From Planctomyces sp. (GTDB lineage: Bacteria; Planctomycetota; Planctomycetia; Planctomycetales; Planctomycetaceae): a stretch of DNA of 36,550 bases. The notes beneath the pieces are model-generated. The model searched no databases, was not told the DNA's origin, and saw only the letters and a list, made by a program, of their open reading frames with translations. Positions within the stretch are counted from its first letter, which is position 1. Each line of letters opens with the position of its first letter. The position numbers and the translations under genes were made by a program. Location: positions 1 through 36,550 of the forward strand of contig JAYVSP010000179.1 of NCBI GenBank assembly GCA_043775215.1, read 5' to 3'. Shown here piece after piece: positions 24,470 through 36,550 of the stretch.

Positions 24470-25948
24470 TTAGACCTGACTGAAGAAGCGAGACGTGGCG
24501 TCTTCCATCAACTTCTGCGTCAGCGCGAAGCGTTGATTCCGAAATCGGCAGATCGACTGGGCAATCTCTAACAAATCTCGCGGATCTGACGATCTTGGCG
24601 TTCGACCACGATCGTAATGGTTAGTGAAGAGGTACTGGATTGCTCGTTCGTCGAATGGCACTTTTTGCTGCTCGCACACCAATCGGAAAATTTGCGAGAA
24701 CATCGCGCGATCCGGTGCCCCGATCTGAATCTTGTGCCGGATCCGCCGCAAAAACGCCTCGTCCACCAGTTGGTGCGGGTCCAGGTTCGTCGAGAAAATG
24801 ATCAACAGCTCGAACGGAACAGAGAATTTCTTGCCTGTGATCAGCGTGAGGTAGTCGATCCGCTCTTCCAGCGGCACGATCCACCGGTTGAGCAAGTCCT
24901 TCGGGCTGACGATCTGCCGGCCAAAGTCGTCGATCAAGAAGACACCGCCGTTCGCCTTCATTTGGACCGGAGCCTGGTAGAAATTGCTGACCTTGTTGTA
25001 TCGCAGTTCAAGCTGATCCAGTGTCAACTCACCGCCGGTGATGACGACCGGCCGGCGCACGCGGCGCCAGCGCAAGTCGACCGTTCCTTCCAGCTTTTGA
25101 CGCTGTTCGGCCAACGATTCGCGCTGGCCGAGGCTTTCGGCATCATGGTTGTCCGTGACGACGTGCAGTGTCGGATCGAAGATCGTGATGATGCTGTTCT
25201 CGGTCAACACGGCATACGGCACGTAGATGTCACCGCCGTATTTATTGAGGAACCGGCCCAGCCCCTTCGCGGCCATCGACTTGCCGTTCCCTGGCGGTCC
25301 GTAAATGAAGATCGACCGGCCGCTGCACACCGCCGGTCCCAATTCATCGAGCAATTGCGGCCCGACGATCATTCCCTGAAAGGCTTCGAGAAGCCGTTCG
25401 GAATCACATTTGATTCCCGCAACTGCCTGCAACCGGCACTGTGCTAAATACGCTTCCAGCGGCACGGGAGCCGGGCCAACGTAGCGGCATTGCTCAAACG
25501 CTTCGCGCGCTCGCGTGCGACCGAGGTCCGTGAGATTGAAACGATAGGACGCTCGGCCGATCAGGTCGCCGCCCGAGGAAACTTCGATGCACTTCTCATC
25601 CTTGAGGAACCGCAGGCTTTCATCGACCAGATTGAACGGCAACCGCGCATGCTTGGCGACTTCGACGCCCAACAGATTTCCGTTCAGATACAAGTGTTTC
25701 AGAATCAGCTCGCAGATTTGCATCCGTGTCAGCCCGCTGTCCCGGAGTGTGAGCGGTGCTTTCGGTGCGTTCTGAGGAGCACTGGCATCAGTCTTGACTC
25801 CCAGTGTCGCCACTTGCGGATCGGCCAAAATACGCCGAGTTTCCTCGTGCGCTTCCGCAAATAGATCCGAGAACAACTCCGACGGCGCATCGTGCAGTGG
25901 CACCAGATCGGATTCAGGCTCCAACAGAGATGTCGAACTGCTGTTCAT
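24470..25948 (-). CDS. AAA+ ATPase with N-terminal winged-helix-like domain
   Basis: Walker A GPPGNGKSMAAKG. Walker B GGVFLIDDFGRQ. Sensor/arginine region FSTNLDPHQLVDEAFLRRIRHKI. The start is placed at ATG 25948 because the 29 codons upstream are encoded by a REPIN palindrome. Confidence 0.85.
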   Translation of the reverse strand: MNSSSTSLLEPESDLVPLHDAPSELFSDLFAEAHEETRRILADPQVATLGVKTDASAPQNAPKAPLTLRDSGLTRMQICELILKHLYLNGNLLGVEVAKHARLPFNLVDESLRFLKDEKCIEVSSGGDLIGRASYRFNLTDLGRTRAREAFEQCRYVGPAPVPLEAYLAQCRLQAVAGIKCDSERLLEAFQGMIVGPQLLDELGPAVCSGRSIFIYGPPGNGKSMAAKGLGRFLNKYGGDIYVPYAVLTENSIITIFDPTLHVVTDNHDAESLGQRESLAEQRQKLEGTVDLRWRRVRRPVVITGGELTLDQLELRYNKVSNFYQAPVQMKANGGVFLIDDFGRQIVSPKDLLNRWIVPLEERIDYLTLITGKKFSVPFELLIIFSTNLDPHQLVDEAFLRRIRHKIQIGAPDRAMFSQIFRLVCEQQKVPFDERAIQYLFTNHYDRGRTPRSSDPRDLLEIAQSICRFRNQRFALTQKLMEDATSRFFSQV

Positions 25949-25965
25949 GAATTGCCGATCAAAAC

Positions 25966-26026
25966 ATAGCCGAAGCCGTGAGACTTCGGTGTTCCGGGAA
26001 ATCCGAAGTCTCATGACTTCGGCTAC
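25966..26026. repeat. REPIN-like inverted pair of GTAG/ATAG-headed hairpins
   Basis: ATAG-ccgaag-ccgtgaga-cttcgg, spacer tgttccgggaaat, then ccgaagtc-tcat-gacttcgg-CTAC. The halves are reverse complements apart from 2 substitutions. Confidence 0.8.
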
Positions 26027-26052
26027 TGCGGGCATTTCTCCGCTTTCAGTGG

Positions 26053-26784
26053 CTAACTGCCTCCTCCGCTGCTACTGGCGTCCGACGTACCAATGGTGTT
26101 CGTTCCAATCGGCGGCGTGATCCGCGGATTGACCATCGTCTCCCGCTCTTTGCGACGCAGTTGATCAATCTCTTCGGCCGGACGTCCCAGCGGACTGGTG
26201 ACGCGGACCATGACCGGTGGCGCTTGCTCTTCGCCGACCATTACGACCGCTTCGTTCTTCGCACCCGCGGCGCGAATCTCACTCATCGCCTGGTCGCTGC
26301 CCGCTTGCACGAACACATACCGATGCCGCGCCGGAGCATTCTCCAAAATCCATCGCAACTGCATCCGGCCAGAGGCGTTCAACTGATGTGTGTCAGCATC
26401 AAAGTGATAGTCGTACAGAGTCGTCATGGTCACCCAGCCGTTGCTGTTCTGTGCTCCCGAAAACGAGCGCACGAACTCGCGGTCCTGGCAGACATAGGGG
26501 TATGGCCAATAATGAGCCGCGTGATACAAATGGCTGGGCAGATTCGCTGGCCCCGTCGGACGCGGATATGGAGGCCACTGCTTCCCTTTCTTGCAGACCT
26601 GTCGAGCACCGATCGGATCGCAGGCTCGTTCGGCATACATCGCCTCATGCTCCGCACGGTGTTCCGTCATCTTCGGCGGAGCATTCCGCGTCCAAGGCCA
26701 CGGAATGATTCCGGCCTGAGCCACTGCGGGAACCAACGTCCCTAAAGCCATCAGCCCACCAAGCCACCACGCGCGAATCAGCAT
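26053..26784 (-). CDS. secreted hypothetical protein
   Basis: Signal peptide MLIRAWWLGGLMALGTLVPAVAQAG. Protein-like composition. Co-oriented with the AAA+ ATPase and TPR lipoprotein genes. Confidence 0.7.
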   Translation of the reverse strand: MLIRAWWLGGLMALGTLVPAVAQAGIIPWPWTRNAPPKMTEHRAEHEAMYAERACDPIGARQVCKKGKQWPPYPRPTGPANLPSHLYHAAHYWPYPYVCQDREFVRSFSGAQNSNGWVTMTTLYDYHFDADTHQLNASGRMQLRWILENAPARHRYVFVQAGSDQAMSEIRAAGAKNEAVVMVGEEQAPPVMVRVTSPLGRPAEEIDQLRRKERETMVNPRITPPIGTNTIGTSDASSSGGGS

Positions 26785-29036: not shown

Positions 29037-29241
29037 TCACGCAGCCTACGGCAGGCACCGGCTCCATTCTCTGCCAAGTTGACAGGGCCAGCGGCTATGC
29101 CGCGAACTGACTCAAGCGGCAAAACCTCGCAGCCAATCGGGTCTTATGGCGAACAGTTTGGGCGGCACAGGGATTGCTTTGCCCGCCGACCACTTGTCTG
29201 GAGATTGTCTGCCCGACTCTTTTTTGATCGAGGGAGAAGCT

Positions 29242-30924
29242 GTGGCAAAGATGTTGGTTTTTGATGATGAGGCTCGCAAGAGTCTGTTGGAAGGTGCATC
29301 GAAGTTGTCGCGGGCTGTTGCCAGCACGCTGGGGCCTCGCGGCCGCAACGCGGTGCTTGATAAGGGCTGGGGGGCTCCGAAGGTCACCAAGGACGGAGTC
29401 ACCGTCGCGGAGGACATCGAGCTGGAAAACCCGTTTGAAAATATGGGTGCCCAGTTGGTCAAAGAGGTCGCGTCGAAGACCAACGCCGTCGCCGGTGACG
29501 GCACGACGACCGCCACGGTGCTCGCTGAAGCGATCTATCGTGAAGGAATCAAGTTCATCGCGTCGGGTGCTGACCCGATGTCGCTGGGCCGAGGCGTCAC
29601 CGCCGCCGTGGATGCCGTGGTCGAACAATTGAAAAAGTTCGCCAAGCCGATCAACGAGAAGAGCAAAAAAGATCTCGAAACTGTGGCCGCGATTGCCGGC
29701 AACAACAACCTGGAAATCGGCCAGAAACTGGCGGAAGCCTTTCTGAAGGTCGGCAAAGACGGCGTGATCACAATCGAGGAAGGCCGACAGGTCGACACCG
29801 AGATTGATCTCGTCGAAGGGATGCAGTTCGAGCGAGGTTACCTCTCCCCGCACTTCGTCACCGACGAAGACGCTCAGGAAGTGGTTCTCGAAAACTGTCG
29901 CATTCTGATTTACGAAGAGAAGATCAGTTCGGCGCGCGATCTGGTGCCGCTGCTCGAAAAGACCTCGAAGGCCAATGTCCCGCTGCTCATCATTGCCGAA
30001 GATCTGGAGGGCGAGGCTCTGGCGACGTTGGTCGTCAATAAGCTGCGCGGCATCCTCAAGGTCGCGGCTGTGAAGGCTCCGGGCTACGGCGATCGCCGCA
30101 AGGCCATGCTGGAAGACCTTGCGGTTTTGACCGGTGGCAAGGCGATCTTCAAGGACTTGGGAACCAAGCTCGAAAACATCGAGTTGTCCGACCTCGGTGT
30201 GGCCAAGAAGATCATCATCGACGCCGAGAACACAACCGTCGTGCAAGGTGCGGGCAAGAAGGACGCCATCCACGGTCGTTGCGAACAAATTCGCGCAGAA
30301 GTCGAGAAGACCGAAAGCGAATACGACCGCGAGAAGCTCCAAGAGCGGCTCGCCAAGCTGGCGGGCGGTGTGGCTCAGATCAACGTCGGAGCCGCGACCG
30401 AGACCGCGATGAAAGAACGCAAGGATCTGTTCGTCGATGCTTTGTCGGCGACTCGCGCGGCCATCGAAGAGGGCATCGTTCCCGGCGGTGGCGTCGCGTT
30501 GCTGCGATGTGGTCCGGCGTTGGAGAAGCTCAAGCTGGACGGCGATGAGCAGTTCGGCGTGAGTCTCATCAAGAACGTGCTCGAAATGCCGCTGCGAATG
30601 ATCGCCGAAAACTCGGGCTTGGATGGAGCGGTTGTCGCTAATCGCGTTCGCAAGTCGAACGATCCGAACTACGGCTACGATGCCTTGAACGAACGCTACG
30701 GTGACATGTTCGACTTCGGTGTTGTCGACCCCGTCAAGGTGGTTCGCTGTGCGTTGCAGAACGCAGCCAGCGTGGCCAACCTGCTGCTGACCACCGACTG
30801 TGTCGTGGTTAATGAACCCAAGAAGGAAGATAAAGACGGCCACCACGACCATCACCACGACGACGGTGGCATGGGCGGAATGGGTGGCGGCATGGGTGGC
30901 ATGGGAATGCCCGGAATGATGTAG
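29242..30924 (+). CDS. groEL: chaperonin GroEL (copy 1) with His-rich/GGM C-terminal tail
   Basis: GTG 29242 preceded by gagggagaag gives [30 protein letters not shown] present. Tail [27 protein letters not shown]. Confidence 0.95.
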
Positions 30925-30949
30925 TGCCGAAGCGGAAATCTTAATTTCC

Positions 30950-31005
30950 AAATCCCAAATCCCAAATCCCAAATCCCAAATCCCAAATCCCAAATCCCAA
31001 ATCCC
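30950..31005. repeat. heptanucleotide tandem repeat (AAATCCC) x8
   Basis: Eight exact units between groEL1 and groES. Followed by an AT-rich region with aaatttgaaatct x2 and the palindrome aaatct-g-agattt. Confidence 0.95.
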
Positions 31006-31070
31006 AAATTTGAAATCTGAGATTTGTAATCTGAAATTTGAAATCTCAAATCTGAATAGGAGTTCGCCTC

Positions 31071-31361
31071 ATGAAACTGAACCCACTGGATGATCGCGTG
31101 GTCGTCGAACCGTTGAACGCCGAGACAACAACTGCTGGCGGCATCGTGCTGCCTGACAGTGCGAAGGAAAAGCCGCAGCGTGGCCGCGTGATTGCGATGG
31201 GCCCTGGCCGGTTGCTGGAGAGCGGCGAGCGTTGCCCGATCGCGTTGGTGATCGGCGACGAAGTCCTCTTCGCCAAGTACGGCGGGACGGAAATCGAGAT
31301 CGACAAAAAGGAAATCAAGATCCTCCGCGAGAGCGATATTCTCGCGAAGGTCGTTTCGTAG
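31071..31361 (+). CDS. groES: co-chaperonin GroES
   Basis: MKLNPLDDRVVVEPLNAETTTAGGIVLPDSAKEKPQRGRVIAMGPG is canonical Cpn10. SD aggag lies 10 nt upstream. Confidence 0.95.
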   Translation: MKLNPLDDRVVVEPLNAETTTAGGIVLPDSAKEKPQRGRVIAMGPGRLLESGERCPIALVIGDEVLFAKYGGTEIEIDKKEIKILRESDILAKVVS

Positions 31362-31498
31362 TTCGGCATCGTCAAAAGATGGGATTTATGGGACTCATGT
31401 GACTCATAAATCCCATTCTTCGCATCAGTCCCATCAGCCTATTCAGAAACAATTCCAAAGCGGTGCTGACACACCGCACTCCAAAGGAGAGCATTCCC

Positions 31499-33115
<1,617 letters not shown>

Positions 33116-33157
33116 CCGTAGCGGCTCGCGTGCCGTTGAGCCAACTTGAAAAACACC

Positions 33158-33184
33158 GCGAGCCACCCGATGAGGGTGGCTCGC
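33158..33184 (+). terminator. groEL2 terminator hairpin
   Basis: gcgagccaccc-gatga-gggtggctcgc, 11-bp stem with a weak T-tract. A counterpart at 35423-35446 is followed by ttt. Confidence 0.6.
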
Positions 33185-33340
33185 CGCATTTAGATTGAAA
33201 AAGCCACTGATTGAAAGGCGGAATCGTTTTGAACAGAAATCGGGTATAGTATCCCGCGTTAAAGCGGGTCGGATCGCTCATCTTTCTCGATGCGGTCACC
33301 GCGTTGCAGGCCTGTCTTCCCACGAATGAAAAGTCATCCC

Positions 33341-34468
33341 ATGCTCACGCGATTTTACGTTGATAACTTCCGCGCCTTGGTAAACACCGACTTGAAGCTC
33401 GGACCACGAAGCCTGTTGATGGGATCGAATGGAACCGGCAAATCGACGTTCGGCGATGTGCTCGTTCGACTTCAATTGATGATGTTCGGTCAGGCCAAGA
33501 CGGATGATACATTCACGCCCGACACGCTCACGCGTTGGCAAAGCATCCCACAGCAACGGATCGAGATGGACGTCACGGGGCCGGAAGGTGCCTACCGCTA
33601 TGAGTTGGTCATTGACCACCACGAAGTTGGTTCTGCTAACGACCCACGAACTCGAATCCTGCGAGAGATTTTGACGCTGGACACTCAGCCGTTATTTCAT
33701 TTCGAAGATGGGCTAGTGCATCTTTTCCAGGATGATCACAGCCAAGGCCCGGTCTATCCTTTTGATTGCGGTCGTTCCGCTTTGGGAACCATCTCGCCGC
33801 GCCGCGATAATCAGAAGCTCACATGGTTCGTTCGTTGGTTTCAACGATTGACGGTCCTCAGACCGAACCCACCGCAGATGGTGGACCTCATCGAGCGGGA
33901 TGATTTTTTACTGTTCGCCGACGCCGCGAATTTCGGCGCTTGGTATCATCCTCTCAGTTCTGCCGACAAACGTCGTGACCGGGAGCTTCATGACGCCCTG
34001 ATTGACGTGCTGCCTGGGTTTGATGCGCTGAACTTTGAATACGCGGGTCCAAACCGCTGGCTGCTGCGCGCGGACTTTTCCCGCGCCGGCCAAAAATTGA
34101 TGCTCCGGTTCAGTGAATTGTCTGATGGTCAGCGTGCCCTGATCCTTCTGTACTGCGTGTTGTATTTCCAATTGCAAGACGGACGAACTGTTTTCTTGGA
34201 TGAGCCGGATAATTTTGTGTCGCTCGACGAAATTCAGCCGTGGCTGCTTTCGGCTGCGGATGTCGTAGACAGCGGGTCGGGTCAGTTGGTGCTGATCTCA
34301 CATCACCCTGAGATTTTCAATCAATGGGCGGTGAGTCATGGGTTGGTCGCGGAGCGCGATGGGTGCGGTCCGGTACGCATTCGAAAATTCAGCCCGACGC
34401 CGGGTGCTGTGTTGTCACCAGCCGAGACGGTCGCGAGGGGCTGGGCGAATGCCATCGCGGCCCCTTAG
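33341..34468 (+). CDS. ABC/SMC-like AAA_21-type ATPase
   Basis: N-terminus FYVDNFRAL. Walker A GSNGTGKST. ABC-signature-like LSDGQRAL. Walker B TVFLDEPDNF. H-loop LVLISHHPE. ATG 33326 and ORF start 33290 are alternative starts. Confidence 0.85.
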   Translation: MLTRFYVDNFRALVNTDLKLGPRSLLMGSNGTGKSTFGDVLVRLQLMMFGQAKTDDTFTPDTLTRWQSIPQQRIEMDVTGPEGAYRYELVIDHHEVGSANDPRTRILREILTLDTQPLFHFEDGLVHLFQDDHSQGPVYPFDCGRSALGTISPRRDNQKLTWFVRWFQRLTVLRPNPPQMVDLIERDDFLLFADAANFGAWYHPLSSADKRRDRELHDALIDVLPGFDALNFEYAGPNRWLLRADFSRAGQKLMLRFSELSDGQRALILLYCVLYFQLQDGRTVFLDEPDNFVSLDEIQPWLLSAADVVDSGSGQLVLISHHPEIFNQWAVSHGLVAERDGCGPVRIRKFSPTPGAVLSPAETVARGWANAIAAP

Positions 34469-34480
34469 GATCGCACATCA

Positions 34481-35032
34481 ATGAGCAATCGTTTTGCCGA
34501 AGTTGTCATCGTTGCCGAAGATGAGCGATCAGCCAACTTGTTGCGCCGGTACGTGCAGCGTGCCCTGCATCTCGGTAACCGGCGTATCCGACAGGAAATT
34601 TCGCCTTCGGCAAAAGGCGATGCCAAGCAATGGGTGATCCGCCAATACGCAGTTGAAGTGAAAGAGTTGCGAACGGTGCATCGCAAAACCGGATTGGTGG
34701 TTCACCTCGATGCTGACACCGACGAAGTTGCCGACCGTGCCAGACAATTGGCGACCGCTCTGAAAAATGATGACCAGGACGAGCGCGATGCCAATGAACG
34801 GATCAGCCATGCCATTCCCAGACGACAGACTGAAACGTGGCTGTGTGTGCTGGTGGGCGAAGATGTCGATGAGGAACAGGACTGCAAACGCGACCGCCGA
34901 CTGCCTGATTTCGATCGCGCCGTACCGCAAGCAGCACTCGCTTTGTATGAAGCGACACGGCCAAACGCACCGATACCAACTCTGCCTTCGCTCGCGACAG
35001 CAGTGCCTGAGCTACGACGTCTGGAGAGCTGA
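34481..35032 (+). CDS. small Toprim-like protein (RloB/DUF4435/OLD-nuclease-like partner of the ATPase)
   Basis: Acidic motifs in the Toprim order: VVIVAEDERSANLL, then LVVHLDADTDE (DxD), then RRQTETWLCVL (E-x-W). 12 nt after the ATPase stop. Assignment made by motif pattern only. Confidence 0.6.
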   Translation: MSNRFAEVVIVAEDERSANLLRRYVQRALHLGNRRIRQEISPSAKGDAKQWVIRQYAVEVKELRTVHRKTGLVVHLDADTDEVADRARQLATALKNDDQDERDANERISHAIPRRQTETWLCVLVGEDVDEEQDCKRDRRLPDFDRAVPQAALALYEATRPNAPIPTLPSLATAVPELRRLES

Positions 35033-35033
35033 A

Positions 35034-35285
35034 ATGTGGAGCGTCGCCGCAGCATCCGACTTCGACACTCAACTTGTTCGAGGCATTCAAACGGCCTTGC
35101 GCAAAGCTCGCGGCTTGGGCTATCACGTCGAGACGATGGACGTCACGGCCTCCGTGTCTGAGGGAGTCTGCAACATTCACTTCTCCGCGATTCCCGCTCC
35201 CGGCACGATTCAGACCGGCAGCGATCTGACAGTTGCCGTCAACTCGGACACTGACGAAGTCATCGGATTCGAGCGAGGCCAATAA
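35034..35285 (+). CDS. hypothetical 83-aa protein, third gene of the cassette
   Basis: ATG 35034 lies 1 nt after the stop of the upstream gene. Protein-like composition. The upstream part of ORF 34767.. overlaps the Toprim-like gene and was discarded. Confidence 0.45.
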   Translation: MWSVAAASDFDTQLVRGIQTALRKARGLGYHVETMDVTASVSEGVCNIHFSAIPAPGTIQTGSDLTVAVNSDTDEVIGFERGQ

Positions 35286-35327
35286 GTTGGTGAGGGGATT
35301 CAGTCATGTTCATTTTCGATCCGCAAC

Positions 35328-35384
35328 CGTGCCGACGACCTCGAAGGCGGCAAGAAAGCCAAGATCGAAGGAGCGGTGCGGTAA
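35328..35384 (+). pseudogene. relic of a groEL 3' end (last ~18 codons + stop)
   Basis: Reads [18 protein letters not shown]-stop in frame, against [18 protein letters not shown]-stop at the real groEL2 end. No start codon. An in-frame stop lies at 35283. Confidence 0.7.
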
Positions 35385-35509
35385 CGCGGCTCGCGTGCCG
35401 TCGAGCAAAGTTTGAAACGCAGCGAGCCACCTGAGAAGGTGGCTCGTTTCGTATCGGAGTAAGCGCCATCAGACAGCCGGTGTCCGCATTGGACAAGAGG
35501 TACGATCAA

Positions 35510-36181
35510 ATGTCGCACAAGGAAGAAATACTGCGGCAACTCGAGTTGTTGATCGCTGACGGTCAGCGCCTTGCTGATTCGTACGAAGGTGAAGACGGTT
35601 TCTTCGAGTCGGGCGCGACCGAAATCGAACTCAGAACCTTCGCGACAGCATCGCTCGCGGCCATCGAACGTGTCAGCGGTCGAAGCAGTGAGTATTACCA
35701 AAGCATCCCGAGAAGCGAACTTTTACAACAATTGTCTTCTGTCGACGGATATGTGCAGTTTGTACCTGCCGCGACTGGTGCATTGACGGCTTTACGATCT
35801 GCGATTCAATGTGGCATGTTGACGTCGCTTGAATCTCGATTGCGTGCCAACATTCACGATGATTTCCTCGCCCAAGCTAACGAATTGCTCATGGCCGGTT
35901 ATCACGTCGCCGGCATGGTTCTCGTGGGCGGCGTGTTAGAGCACCACCTACTCAAGCTAGTTCAGGCCCGTAACCTTCAATGGTCAAATGCGGGAAGTCT
36001 CGCGAAATACAACGATCTATTGCGAGATGTCGTTTACCCGCAACCGACATGGCGGCGGATTCAGTCAATCGCCGATGTGCGCAATGAGGCTGCCCACGGG
36101 AATGGGGCGCAGGTGAAAGTCGATGATGTGAAGGATGCGTTGAACTTCACGCAAAGGATTCTTACGGATCACCCGTTGTAG
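35510..36181 (+). CDS. HEPN-superfamily protein (DUF4145-like C-terminal domain) with coiled-coil N-terminus
   Basis: Rx4H motif in IADVRNEAAHG, preceded by AGMVLVGGVLEHHLLKLV..LAKYNDLLRD, the typical DUF4145 layout. GTG 35480 is an alternative start. Confidence 0.7.
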   Translation: MSHKEEILRQLELLIADGQRLADSYEGEDGFFESGATEIELRTFATASLAAIERVSGRSSEYYQSIPRSELLQQLSSVDGYVQFVPAATGALTALRSAIQCGMLTSLESRLRANIHDDFLAQANELLMAGYHVAGMVLVGGVLEHHLLKLVQARNLQWSNAGSLAKYNDLLRDVVYPQPTWRRIQSIADVRNEAAHGNGAQVKVDDVKDALNFTQRILTDHPL

Positions 36182-36193
36182 GACGAACGAAGC

Positions 36194-36517
36194 ATGCCCT
36201 CTATCGCAATTCCCAATGTGGCCAATCGTGATTTGGATGGGGTCTTCGCGCACCTCAGTCAGTTCGGACGTTGGGGAATGGACAAGAAAAAGCGATTCGT
36301 CATCGCAAACTGGAGTTGGCACACCGTCGTTCGCATTTACGCGAAAGGAGAAACAATCGCGGTCACCGCGGTCACCGCCTCGCCACGATTCCGAACGATG
36401 TTTGTCTTTGAGGTCATCCCAATGTGTTTCATTGCGAGCGCGTTGGAGCAGGAAAAGGGGTCAGGACTGAATGGCACTGCCGTTACTGTTTTGCACATGG
36501 TCGGCGCGCAGCGGTAG
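36194..36517 (+). CDS. hypothetical 107-aa protein, 12 nt downstream of the HEPN gene
   Basis: ORF track, ATG start. One hydrophobic stretch MFVFEVIPMCFIASAL. No family recognised. Confidence 0.4.
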   Translation: MPSIAIPNVANRDLDGVFAHLSQFGRWGMDKKKRFVIANWSWHTVVRIYAKGETIAVTAVTASPRFRTMFVFEVIPMCFIASALEQEKGSGLNGTAVTVLHMVGAQR

Positions 36518-36550
36518 GACGCACGCGCGAGGGCGTGTGCTATAGGGCGT

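Follow-up and report, generated by a model that had tools for sequence, protein, structure and literature searches.

Does a tight run of three open reading frames (ORFs) near the end of a planctomycete contig encode one three-component immune system, or do separate units meet there? The question was raised by the window, i.e., the whole stretch of 36,550 nucleotides analyzed here (Planctomyces sp., contig JAYVSP010000179.1 of assembly GCA_043775215.1), in which three genes, hereafter gene 1, gene 2, and gene 3, follow one another downstream of the chaperonin genes groES and groEL. An initial annotation, made from the DNA letters, had read them as a candidate anti-phage module consisting of an ATPase, a small Toprim-like partner, and a tightly coupled third protein. 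The analysis separates them: Genes 1 and 2 make up a new family, still without annotation, of a system type that is already known, and gene 3, although real and conserved, is a bystander outside the module. The three ORFs and all motifs quoted for them were present where the annotation had placed them, and because each ORF has tens to hundreds of conserved homologs, none of the three is a chance ORF. The start of gene 1 at 33341 was taken as correct, in preference to an upstream ATG at 33290, because its homologs open with MLTR(L/F)YVDNFR and because DNA homology of gene 1 to other loci begins at ~33339.

An ATPase gene and its Toprim-like partner

Gene 1 matched the Pfam family AAA_21 (PF13304) with 48.3 bits, above the cutoff of 27 (E = 1.9e-12), which bears out its earlier description as an ABC/AAA_21 ATPase. 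Its best matches in the PADLOC defense library were AbiLi (E = 1.8e-16), AriA (1.4e-14), and HEC-01A, of which several models matched with E values from 4e-14 to 1e-9 and in some cases over the full length; these include matches at 4.2e-14 and 2.3e-13, the latter nearly full length. The protein carries a Walker A motif (GSNGTGKST, with K34), a signature motif (LSDGQR, residues 260-265), a Walker B motif (FLDEPD, with D287 and E288; DEPD at 287-290), and an H-loop (SHH, 320-322, with H321). In an alignment of 79 gene 1 homologs, taken from the loci collected in this analysis, GxNGxGK, LSxGQR, DEPxN, SHHPE, and a C-terminal ARGW were conserved at 90% or more. An NCBIfam scan gave only sub-threshold N-terminal or ABC-F-like matches, and sequence matches in the PDB were marginal, with the N-terminus of the OLD protein 6P74 among them. 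Its sequence thus marks gene 1 as an ABC-type ATPase that is kept under purifying selection and has relatives in the ATPases of AbiL, PARIS, and HEC-01, without being a member of any of these families.

The acidic motifs of gene 2 are all in place, namely AEDE (residues 12-15), DADTD (77-81), and TETW (117-120). Its close homologs (60-78% identity) are all ~183 aa long, stem from Planctomycetota, and bear no Pfam domain or name. A profile search covering 1.84 billion representative proteins placed 1382 clusters in the family at E <= 1e-3 and 909 at E <= 1e-10, and the family clusters found in a second search were all unannotated “hypothetical proteins.” Across a diverse alignment of 47 homologs (37% mean column identity), E13, W120, and E131 were invariant, and D14, G46, D77, D79, P113, E118, T119, E177, and R180 were conserved at 90% or more, so that the acidic residues of the family occur in the order Glu ... 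DxD ... Glu. Searched alone against Pfam, NCBIfam, and PADLOC, the window protein yielded sub-threshold noise (SKI, Cucumo_2B) and weak HEC-01B matches (E = 7.8e-4 in PADLOC). Among the 47 family members, 20 were matched by HEC-01B hidden Markov models (HMMs; best 1.3e-6, from nine models, or ten once a further scan, A1, is included). Other PADLOC matches of the family were to mad4 (best 7e-5) and to the partner models PDC-M25B, PDC-M31B, and PDC-M38B, and Pfam matches were to DUF4276 (best 2.4e-5; 5 of the 47 members) and DUF3226 (best 8.4e-6); no further family recurred when the 47 members were scanned against PADLOC and Pfam. As far as profile comparison can tell, gene 2 is distantly related to the Toprim-like partners HEC-01B, DUF4276, and Mad4.

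A model of gene 2 computed with AlphaFold2 (AF2), with a predicted local distance difference test score (pLDDT) of 78.7, contains a b-a-b-a-b-a-b-a core and two C-terminal helices. A Toprim fold, for comparison, would have three alpha/beta layers and the sheet order 2-1-3-4. In the gene 2 model, E13 lies directly after strand 1 (residues 8-12) and D77xD79 directly after strand 3 (71-74). The Toprim superfamily has been delimited by two features, a conserved Glu that closes strand 1 and a DxD that follows strand 3, and DUF4276 and RloB were placed in it on this ground (PMC12065111). The same Glu and DxD are found in gene 2, as seen from the 47 homologs and from the strand positions of the AF2 model. 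HEC-01B, too, has been described as TOPRIM-like (bioRxiv 10.1101/2024.01.29.577857). Among structures in BFVD, the best match of gene 2 was an RloB-like protein (probability 0.94, E = 0.023, template modeling (TM) score 0.40), which is not significant. Of the Toprim assignment made in the initial annotation, the acidic motifs in Toprim order and the distant links to HEC-01B, DUF4276, and Mad4 stand, whereas the fold assignment is weaker than had been implied, with no Pfam match at threshold and no significant structure match in the PDB or BFVD. We regard gene 2 as very probably a divergent Toprim-like protein, on the basis of its motifs, the weak profile links, and the genomic coupling rather than of a significant fold match, and we infer from these a Toprim fold and nuclease activity.

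The coupling of the two genes is near-obligate. Of 85 loci that carry a gene 2 homolog (80 GTDB species genomes and 5 metagenome contigs, with one contig counted twice), 84 have a homolog of gene 1 as the next gene upstream in the same orientation, and the lone exception is cut by a contig end. Because of this constant arrangement, genes 1 and 2 are a real two-gene module of the OLD/PARIS/AbiL/HEC-01 kind, and the initial annotation had likewise related the ATPase and its Toprim-type partner to PARIS/AbiL/OLD-type pairs. At the collected loci (denoted by L numbers) that have gene-call tables, namely L001-L003, L092, and L093, the end of gene 1 and the beginning of gene 2 share 4 nt; in the window, a 12-nt gap separates the two. 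A genome scan located the gene 2 family in at least 575 species-level genomes, and most of the listed genomes belong to Acidobacteriota (Bryobacterales, Terriglobia, Solibacter) and Planctomycetota, with occasional others, which takes away the novelty that had been claimed for a planctomycete host.

The genes that flank the pair vary between genomes and differ in nearly every one: The 143 immediate neighbors in 72 genomes represent 166 Pfam families, none of which occurs in more than three. Because the flanks differ among genomes in this way, the module is accessory and context-independent, as expected of defense or addiction modules, with a weak defense-island signal. Nor is the ATPase a housekeeping gene with conserved synteny, an alternative that the initial annotation had itself raised. 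Neighbors of a defense type comprise a type IIG restriction-modification enzyme, SduA, an AriA-like protein, and a mad3-like protein, and transposase-type integrases occur as well. A Mad4/DUF4276 sequence was sought beside the mad3-like neighbors, and the ATPases identified there turned out to be ABC-F and ABC-transporter proteins rather than Mad3. At L092, whose pair is the closest relative (gene 2 identity 78%), the ATPase gene is preceded at a distance of 30 nt by the gene of a 470-aa TIR_2-domain protein (939-2351). Downstream comes a small AF2212-like pair, and the setting resembles a defense islet.

We also noted a distant relative of gene 1 (22.7% identity) on an Oceanisphaera plasmid (NZ_CP136857.1; L108, 3001-4915), which is accompanied by a 252-aa hypothetical protein. 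The two genes sit between brxC and pglX of a BREX-1 system, and within the 252-aa partner, the stretch IPKPTSEAWL is similar to the IPKRxIETW motif of the gene 2 family.

Gene 3 and the slot downstream of groEL

Gene 3 has 53 homolog clusters (82 aa, 56-89% identity), and it has no Pfam match, hence no match to PepSY at the sequence level. Its AF2 model (pLDDT 85.7) shows one helix on a four-stranded antiparallel sheet, for which the top PDB match in Foldseek was the C-terminal PepSY domain of YpeB (probability 0.99, TM score 0.58, E = 0.13). A PepSY-like fold is thereby predicted for a protein that the initial annotation had left without a recognizable family. The N-terminus, judged by eye, is not signal-peptide-like.

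Of the pair loci, 81 offer 400 bp or more of downstream sequence, the closest relatives (72-78% identity) among them, and none of these contains gene 3; neither gene 1 nor gene 2, in turn, was found in any of 19 gene 3 loci. Among all these loci, co-occurrence of the triplet was not found outside the genome of the window. DNA homology with other loci extends to 35026 for the pair and sets in at 35033-35039 for gene 3. Going by these homology boundaries, genes 1 and 2 on the one hand and gene 3 on the other are two separate units that abut at the gene 3 start codon, and the claim of a tightly coupled third component is not supported.

Elsewhere, gene 3 keeps other company. Its commonest upstream partner is a Prok-JAB/DUF4329-like protein of ~150-177 aa with an HxH...SxxD motif (L010, L095, L099, L101, and L104, plus the fused call P0117), and the two genes overlap by 4 nt at L010/L011, L095, and L101, where the junctions are readable. 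At L097 and L098, gene 3 is preceded by a PIN toxin with a small partner, at L004-L006 and L094 by a pair of 90-93 aa and 167 aa, and at L007-L009 it stands ahead of a DUF4915 gene. PepSY domains have a proposed peptidase-inhibitor role (Pfam description), which the pairing with the metallopeptidase-like JAB protein echoes. Because of the predicted PepSY-like fold and the recurrent JAB partner, gene 3 may be an inhibitor or immunity partner of the JAB protein. The two may thus be a peptidase and its PepSY-like inhibitor or immunity partner, a combination of which we saw no earlier description.

The same locus as in the window, with gene 3 downstream of groEL, was found at L095, L097, L098, and L004, with dnaJ-grpE further on at L004 and L094. 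In this lineage, gene 3 is therefore resident behind groEL and marks the downstream edge of a slot, and this residence explains its adjacency to genes 1 and 2, which fill the slot in the window. In related Planctomycetota (L004 and L094-L098), the space between groEL and gene 3 is taken by a Prok-JAB gene, by an 88-aa + PIN (VapC-like) pair, or by the 90-93-aa + 167-aa pair, so that it looks like a variable hotspot within a chaperone gene cluster. At L094, an additional pair of 96 and 168 aa lies between gene 3 and dnaJ-grpE.

Table 1. Coordinates of the genes and repeat elements at the locus; positions refer to the window unless a collected locus is named.
Feature	Coordinates	Strand	Description
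Gene 1	33341-34468	+	375 aa from the ATG at 33341; ABC-type (AAA_21) ATPase
Gene 2	34481-35032	+	183 aa; probably Toprim-like, family without a Pfam model; proposed nuclease effector
Gene 3	35034-35285	+	83 aa; predicted PepSY-like fold; neighbor and locus anchor
Unique spacer	33192-33340	+	~150 bp between the groEL terminator and gene 1
Left direct-repeat copy	33055-33191	+	last 61 nt of groEL and terminator hairpins
Right direct-repeat copy	35324-35455	+	truncated groEL 3′ end and terminator copy, directly after gene 3
groES	31071-31361		upstream of gene 1
groEL	31463-33115		upstream of gene 1
Additional chaperonin gene	29146-30924		upstream of groES
JAB gene and gene 3, L010	5549-6249		region of the two genes
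JAB gene and gene 3, L095	91-869		region of the two genes

In the window, a direct repeat of ~135 bp brackets genes 1 to 3, where each copy carries the 3′ coding end of groEL and terminator hairpins. The copies are 80-90% identical by segment (D2 90%, D6 84%, D10 80%), fold into strong hairpins (z -4.8 for the left and -4.7 for the right copy), and are the only two sites of this groEL-end/terminator element in the window. A copy of this terminator also follows gene 3 at L096 and L098. No flanking direct repeats were present around the pair at three other pair loci that we checked, and the duplication is for this reason a property of the window locus and not of the pair. The duplication fits a putative acquisition by recombination at the groEL 3′ end; no integrase is present. 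The spacer ahead of gene 1 has no DNA homology to any other locus, whereas homology of the pair starts at 33320-33341. Presumably, this spacer carries the pair’s own promoter, although a sigma-70-like site was not found in it. An Rfam scan of 30800-36550 gave nothing credible.

Several further features of the window lie around this insert. Directly after the groEL remnant, an ORF of 233 aa (35480-36181, +) has an RNEAAH (Rx4H) motif and sub-threshold HEPN matches (RiboL-PSP-HEPN at 1.7e-4, DUF4145 at 3.6e-3, Swt1-HEPN, and PADLOC RTasHEPN). To go by these matches, the ORF probably encodes a HEPN-domain toxin or defense protein of the same hotspot, and no homolog of it was seen in any collected locus. 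The ORF that comes next (36194-36517, +; 107 aa) has a 72%-identical, 132-aa homolog immediately downstream of groEL at L004 and is a conserved hypothetical protein of this locus; the window ends just past it. Between the first chaperonin gene and groES, a tandem heptamer array (30927-31045) of CCCAAAT/CCAAATC units with a 14-nt periodicity decays into TTTGAAATC and gives spurious miRNA-like Rfam matches. Between groES and groEL lies a near-perfect palindrome of 19 + 19 nt (31379-31416; ATGGGATTTATGGGACTCA / TGTGACTCATAAATCCCAT), which could be an operator or a processing site and differs from the classical CIRCE sequence. Farther upstream, the region 24470-26784 (-) holds the gene of a 521-aa protein with a weak AAA_16 match, which stands beside an unannotated 243-aa ORF and a TPR protein.

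Candidate roles of the pair

What, then, does the pair do? On balance, we hold it probable that the two genes are a self-contained module which moves horizontally, with gene 1 as its ATPase and gene 2 as its small, stand-alone, Toprim-like and metal-dependent nuclease, and which is anti-phage by analogy with PARIS and OLD. Observed for the pair are the ATPase identity of gene 1, conserved residues of a catalytic type, near-obligate pairing, and a scattered, accessory distribution. From the analogy, we infer the anti-phage role, a physical complex of the two gene products, and a nucleic acid target of the nuclease, and we propose gene 1 as the sensor or regulator subunit. In such a scheme, an oligomer of the gene 1 ATPase would bind the gene 2 nuclease and keep it inactive, and would sense a phage-derived cue or a defect in DNA or replication. 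Binding or hydrolysis of ATP by gene 1 would then release or activate the nuclease, which would cut nucleic acid (tRNA or DNA) and thereby abort the infection.

A number of results weigh against this reading, and three other explanations were considered. The neighbors of the pair in the 72 genomes are mostly housekeeping genes, with few defense genes among them; a scan of IMG/VR viral contigs returned only two marginal fragments of the gene 2 family; and a tblastn search of gene 2 against PLSDB plasmids gave no match. As to gene 2 itself, the window protein has no match at threshold in Pfam, NCBIfam, or PDB sequences, PDB searches with two family profiles gave chance matches only (adenylate kinase, PheRS), one of five AF2 models was confident, and Foldseek against the PDB returned generic alpha/beta folds only (best E = 0.08), with lumazine synthase and PTS IIA folds at the top and no OLD, AriB, or GajA Toprim among the top 50 matches. 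HEC-01, a PADLOC candidate from Payne et al. and the nearest one described so far, did not protect against the phages tested in E. coli (bioRxiv 10.1101/2024.01.29.577857). The lack of a significant structural match to any Toprim protein would suit a gene 2 that is a non-catalytic alpha/beta adaptor or regulatory domain, in which the acidic motifs mimic the Toprim order. All HMM matches of the gene 2 family are, moreover, weaker than 1e-6, and hhalign of the family profile with the BREX-embedded 252-aa partner from Oceanisphaera gave a probability of 2%, with only IPKxxxE(A/T)W in common. We nevertheless consider such an adaptor quite improbable, since E13, D77, D79, and E118 are invariant or nearly so despite the low column identity of the alignment, as is typical of catalytic metal ligands, since the families that were matched repeatedly are all Toprim-like ATPase partners, and since the best viral structural match is RloB-like. 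A pair that is real yet serves another end, i.e., a selfish addiction (toxin-antitoxin-like) module or an accessory function in DNA/RNA processing or repair, carries more weight, although we still rate it as rather unlikely. It would account for the housekeeping neighbors and the faint defense-island signal, it agrees with the failure of HEC-01 to protect, the slot is also used by toxin-antitoxin modules such as the PIN pair at L098, and the Pfam name of AAA_21 refers to the toxin of a type IV toxin-antitoxin system. Against it stands that every characterized pair of this architecture (PARIS, AbiL, OLD, Gabija, and MADS) is a defense system, and that the patchy, context-free spread and the TIR, type IIG restriction-modification, SduA, and AriA-like neighbors fit defense better than repair.

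The three-component system of the initial annotation, with gene 3 as a sensor, inhibitor, or antitoxin, draws on the junction between genes 2 and 3: The gene 3 ATG lies 1 nt past the gene 2 TGA, on the same strand, with a GGAG ~9 nt before it. Moreover, the position of gene 3 homologs directly downstream of the potentially toxic Prok-JAB and PIN genes would permit a portable inhibitor. This system is largely refuted and, to our mind, highly improbable, given that the pair and gene 3 were each missing from the other’s loci, that DNA homology splits exactly between genes 2 and 3, and that synteny accounts for the adjacency, with gene 3 resident downstream of groEL in relatives. A related proposal combines two linked ideas. 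The slot would be a dedicated cassette-exchange site, at which small toxic or defensive modules (the ATPase-Toprim pair, PIN, JAB, and the 93 + 167-aa pair) replace one another through recombination, with a duplication of the groEL 3′ end and the terminator as its result, and the PepSY-like product of gene 3, kept directly downstream of whichever effector fills the slot, would be a portable inhibitor that here also modulates gene 2. We view this combination as improbable.

Significance and comparison with known systems

If active, the pair would represent a divergent, so far unannotated branch of the ABC-ATPase/Toprim immune modules: The gene 2 family has no Pfam or NCBIfam model, and PADLOC models match the nuclease partner only weakly. 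This branch is common in soil Acidobacteriota and Planctomycetota, phyla in which, to our knowledge, phage defense has barely been studied and almost no immunity has been characterized. The family could be an active, mechanistically distinct defense system that is typical of these two phyla. If it is a true nuclease, gene 2 would be among the most compact of the stand-alone partners compared here (the HEC-01B models are ~217 aa and AriB is ~35 kDa), and would therefore lend itself to studies of how an ATPase controls a nuclease. The third gene, which had made the find look new, is explained by the variable cassette slot behind groEL.

Of the known systems, HEC-01 has the same two-gene order, with an ABC ATPase of ~380 aa followed by a stand-alone TOPRIM-like protein of ~200 aa, and it is matched on both sides, by gene 1 at the HEC-01A level given above and by gene 2 weakly. 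The window pair differs in lying outside any Hma system, in a context of groEL and chaperone genes. In PARIS, likewise composed of an ATPase and a separate Toprim effector, the AriA ATPase scaffold sequesters AriB until a trigger releases this Toprim nuclease, which cleaves tRNA (PMC11464382). The AriA HMM matches gene 1, but only in part (residues 227-326); neither gene 2 nor the 47 family members have a DUF4435 or AriB match, gene 2 is about half the size of AriB, and its family was not found on phage satellites and is practically absent from viral contigs. AbiL/RloAB supplies the best PADLOC match of gene 1 (AbiLi) and the best BFVD neighbor of gene 2 (RloB-like). Gene 2 and its family, however, have no RloB (PF13707) or AbiLii HMM match, and that non-significant structural resemblance is the sole link of gene 2 to this system.

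Small Toprim-like partners of AAA_15/21 ATPases are also found in MADS (Mad3/Mad4) and in the DUF4276/DUF3226 families, and the N-terminus of gene 1 matches mad3. In NCBIfam, however, gene 1 scored 32 bits against MAD3 (NF047739), whose cutoff is 420, over the N-terminus only, and the window contains no methylation gene or other MADS gene; DUF4276, for its part, matches the five family members mentioned and not the window protein. PD-T4-4 was considered as a relative and rejected, its nuclease being of the PD-(D/E)xK type. OLD and the Gabija protein GajA differ from the pair in form: In the window, the two domains reside on two polypeptides, without a Toprim_OLD match and without an adjacent UvrD-like helicase. 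OLD has been described as an ABC ATPase sensor joined to a TOPRIM tRNase effector (bioRxiv 10.64898/2026.07.10.737580). The two domains are the same as in the pair, gene 1 has a weak N-terminal match to Ts OLD (PDB 6P74), and the logic by which the ATPase governs its partner is probably the same as well.

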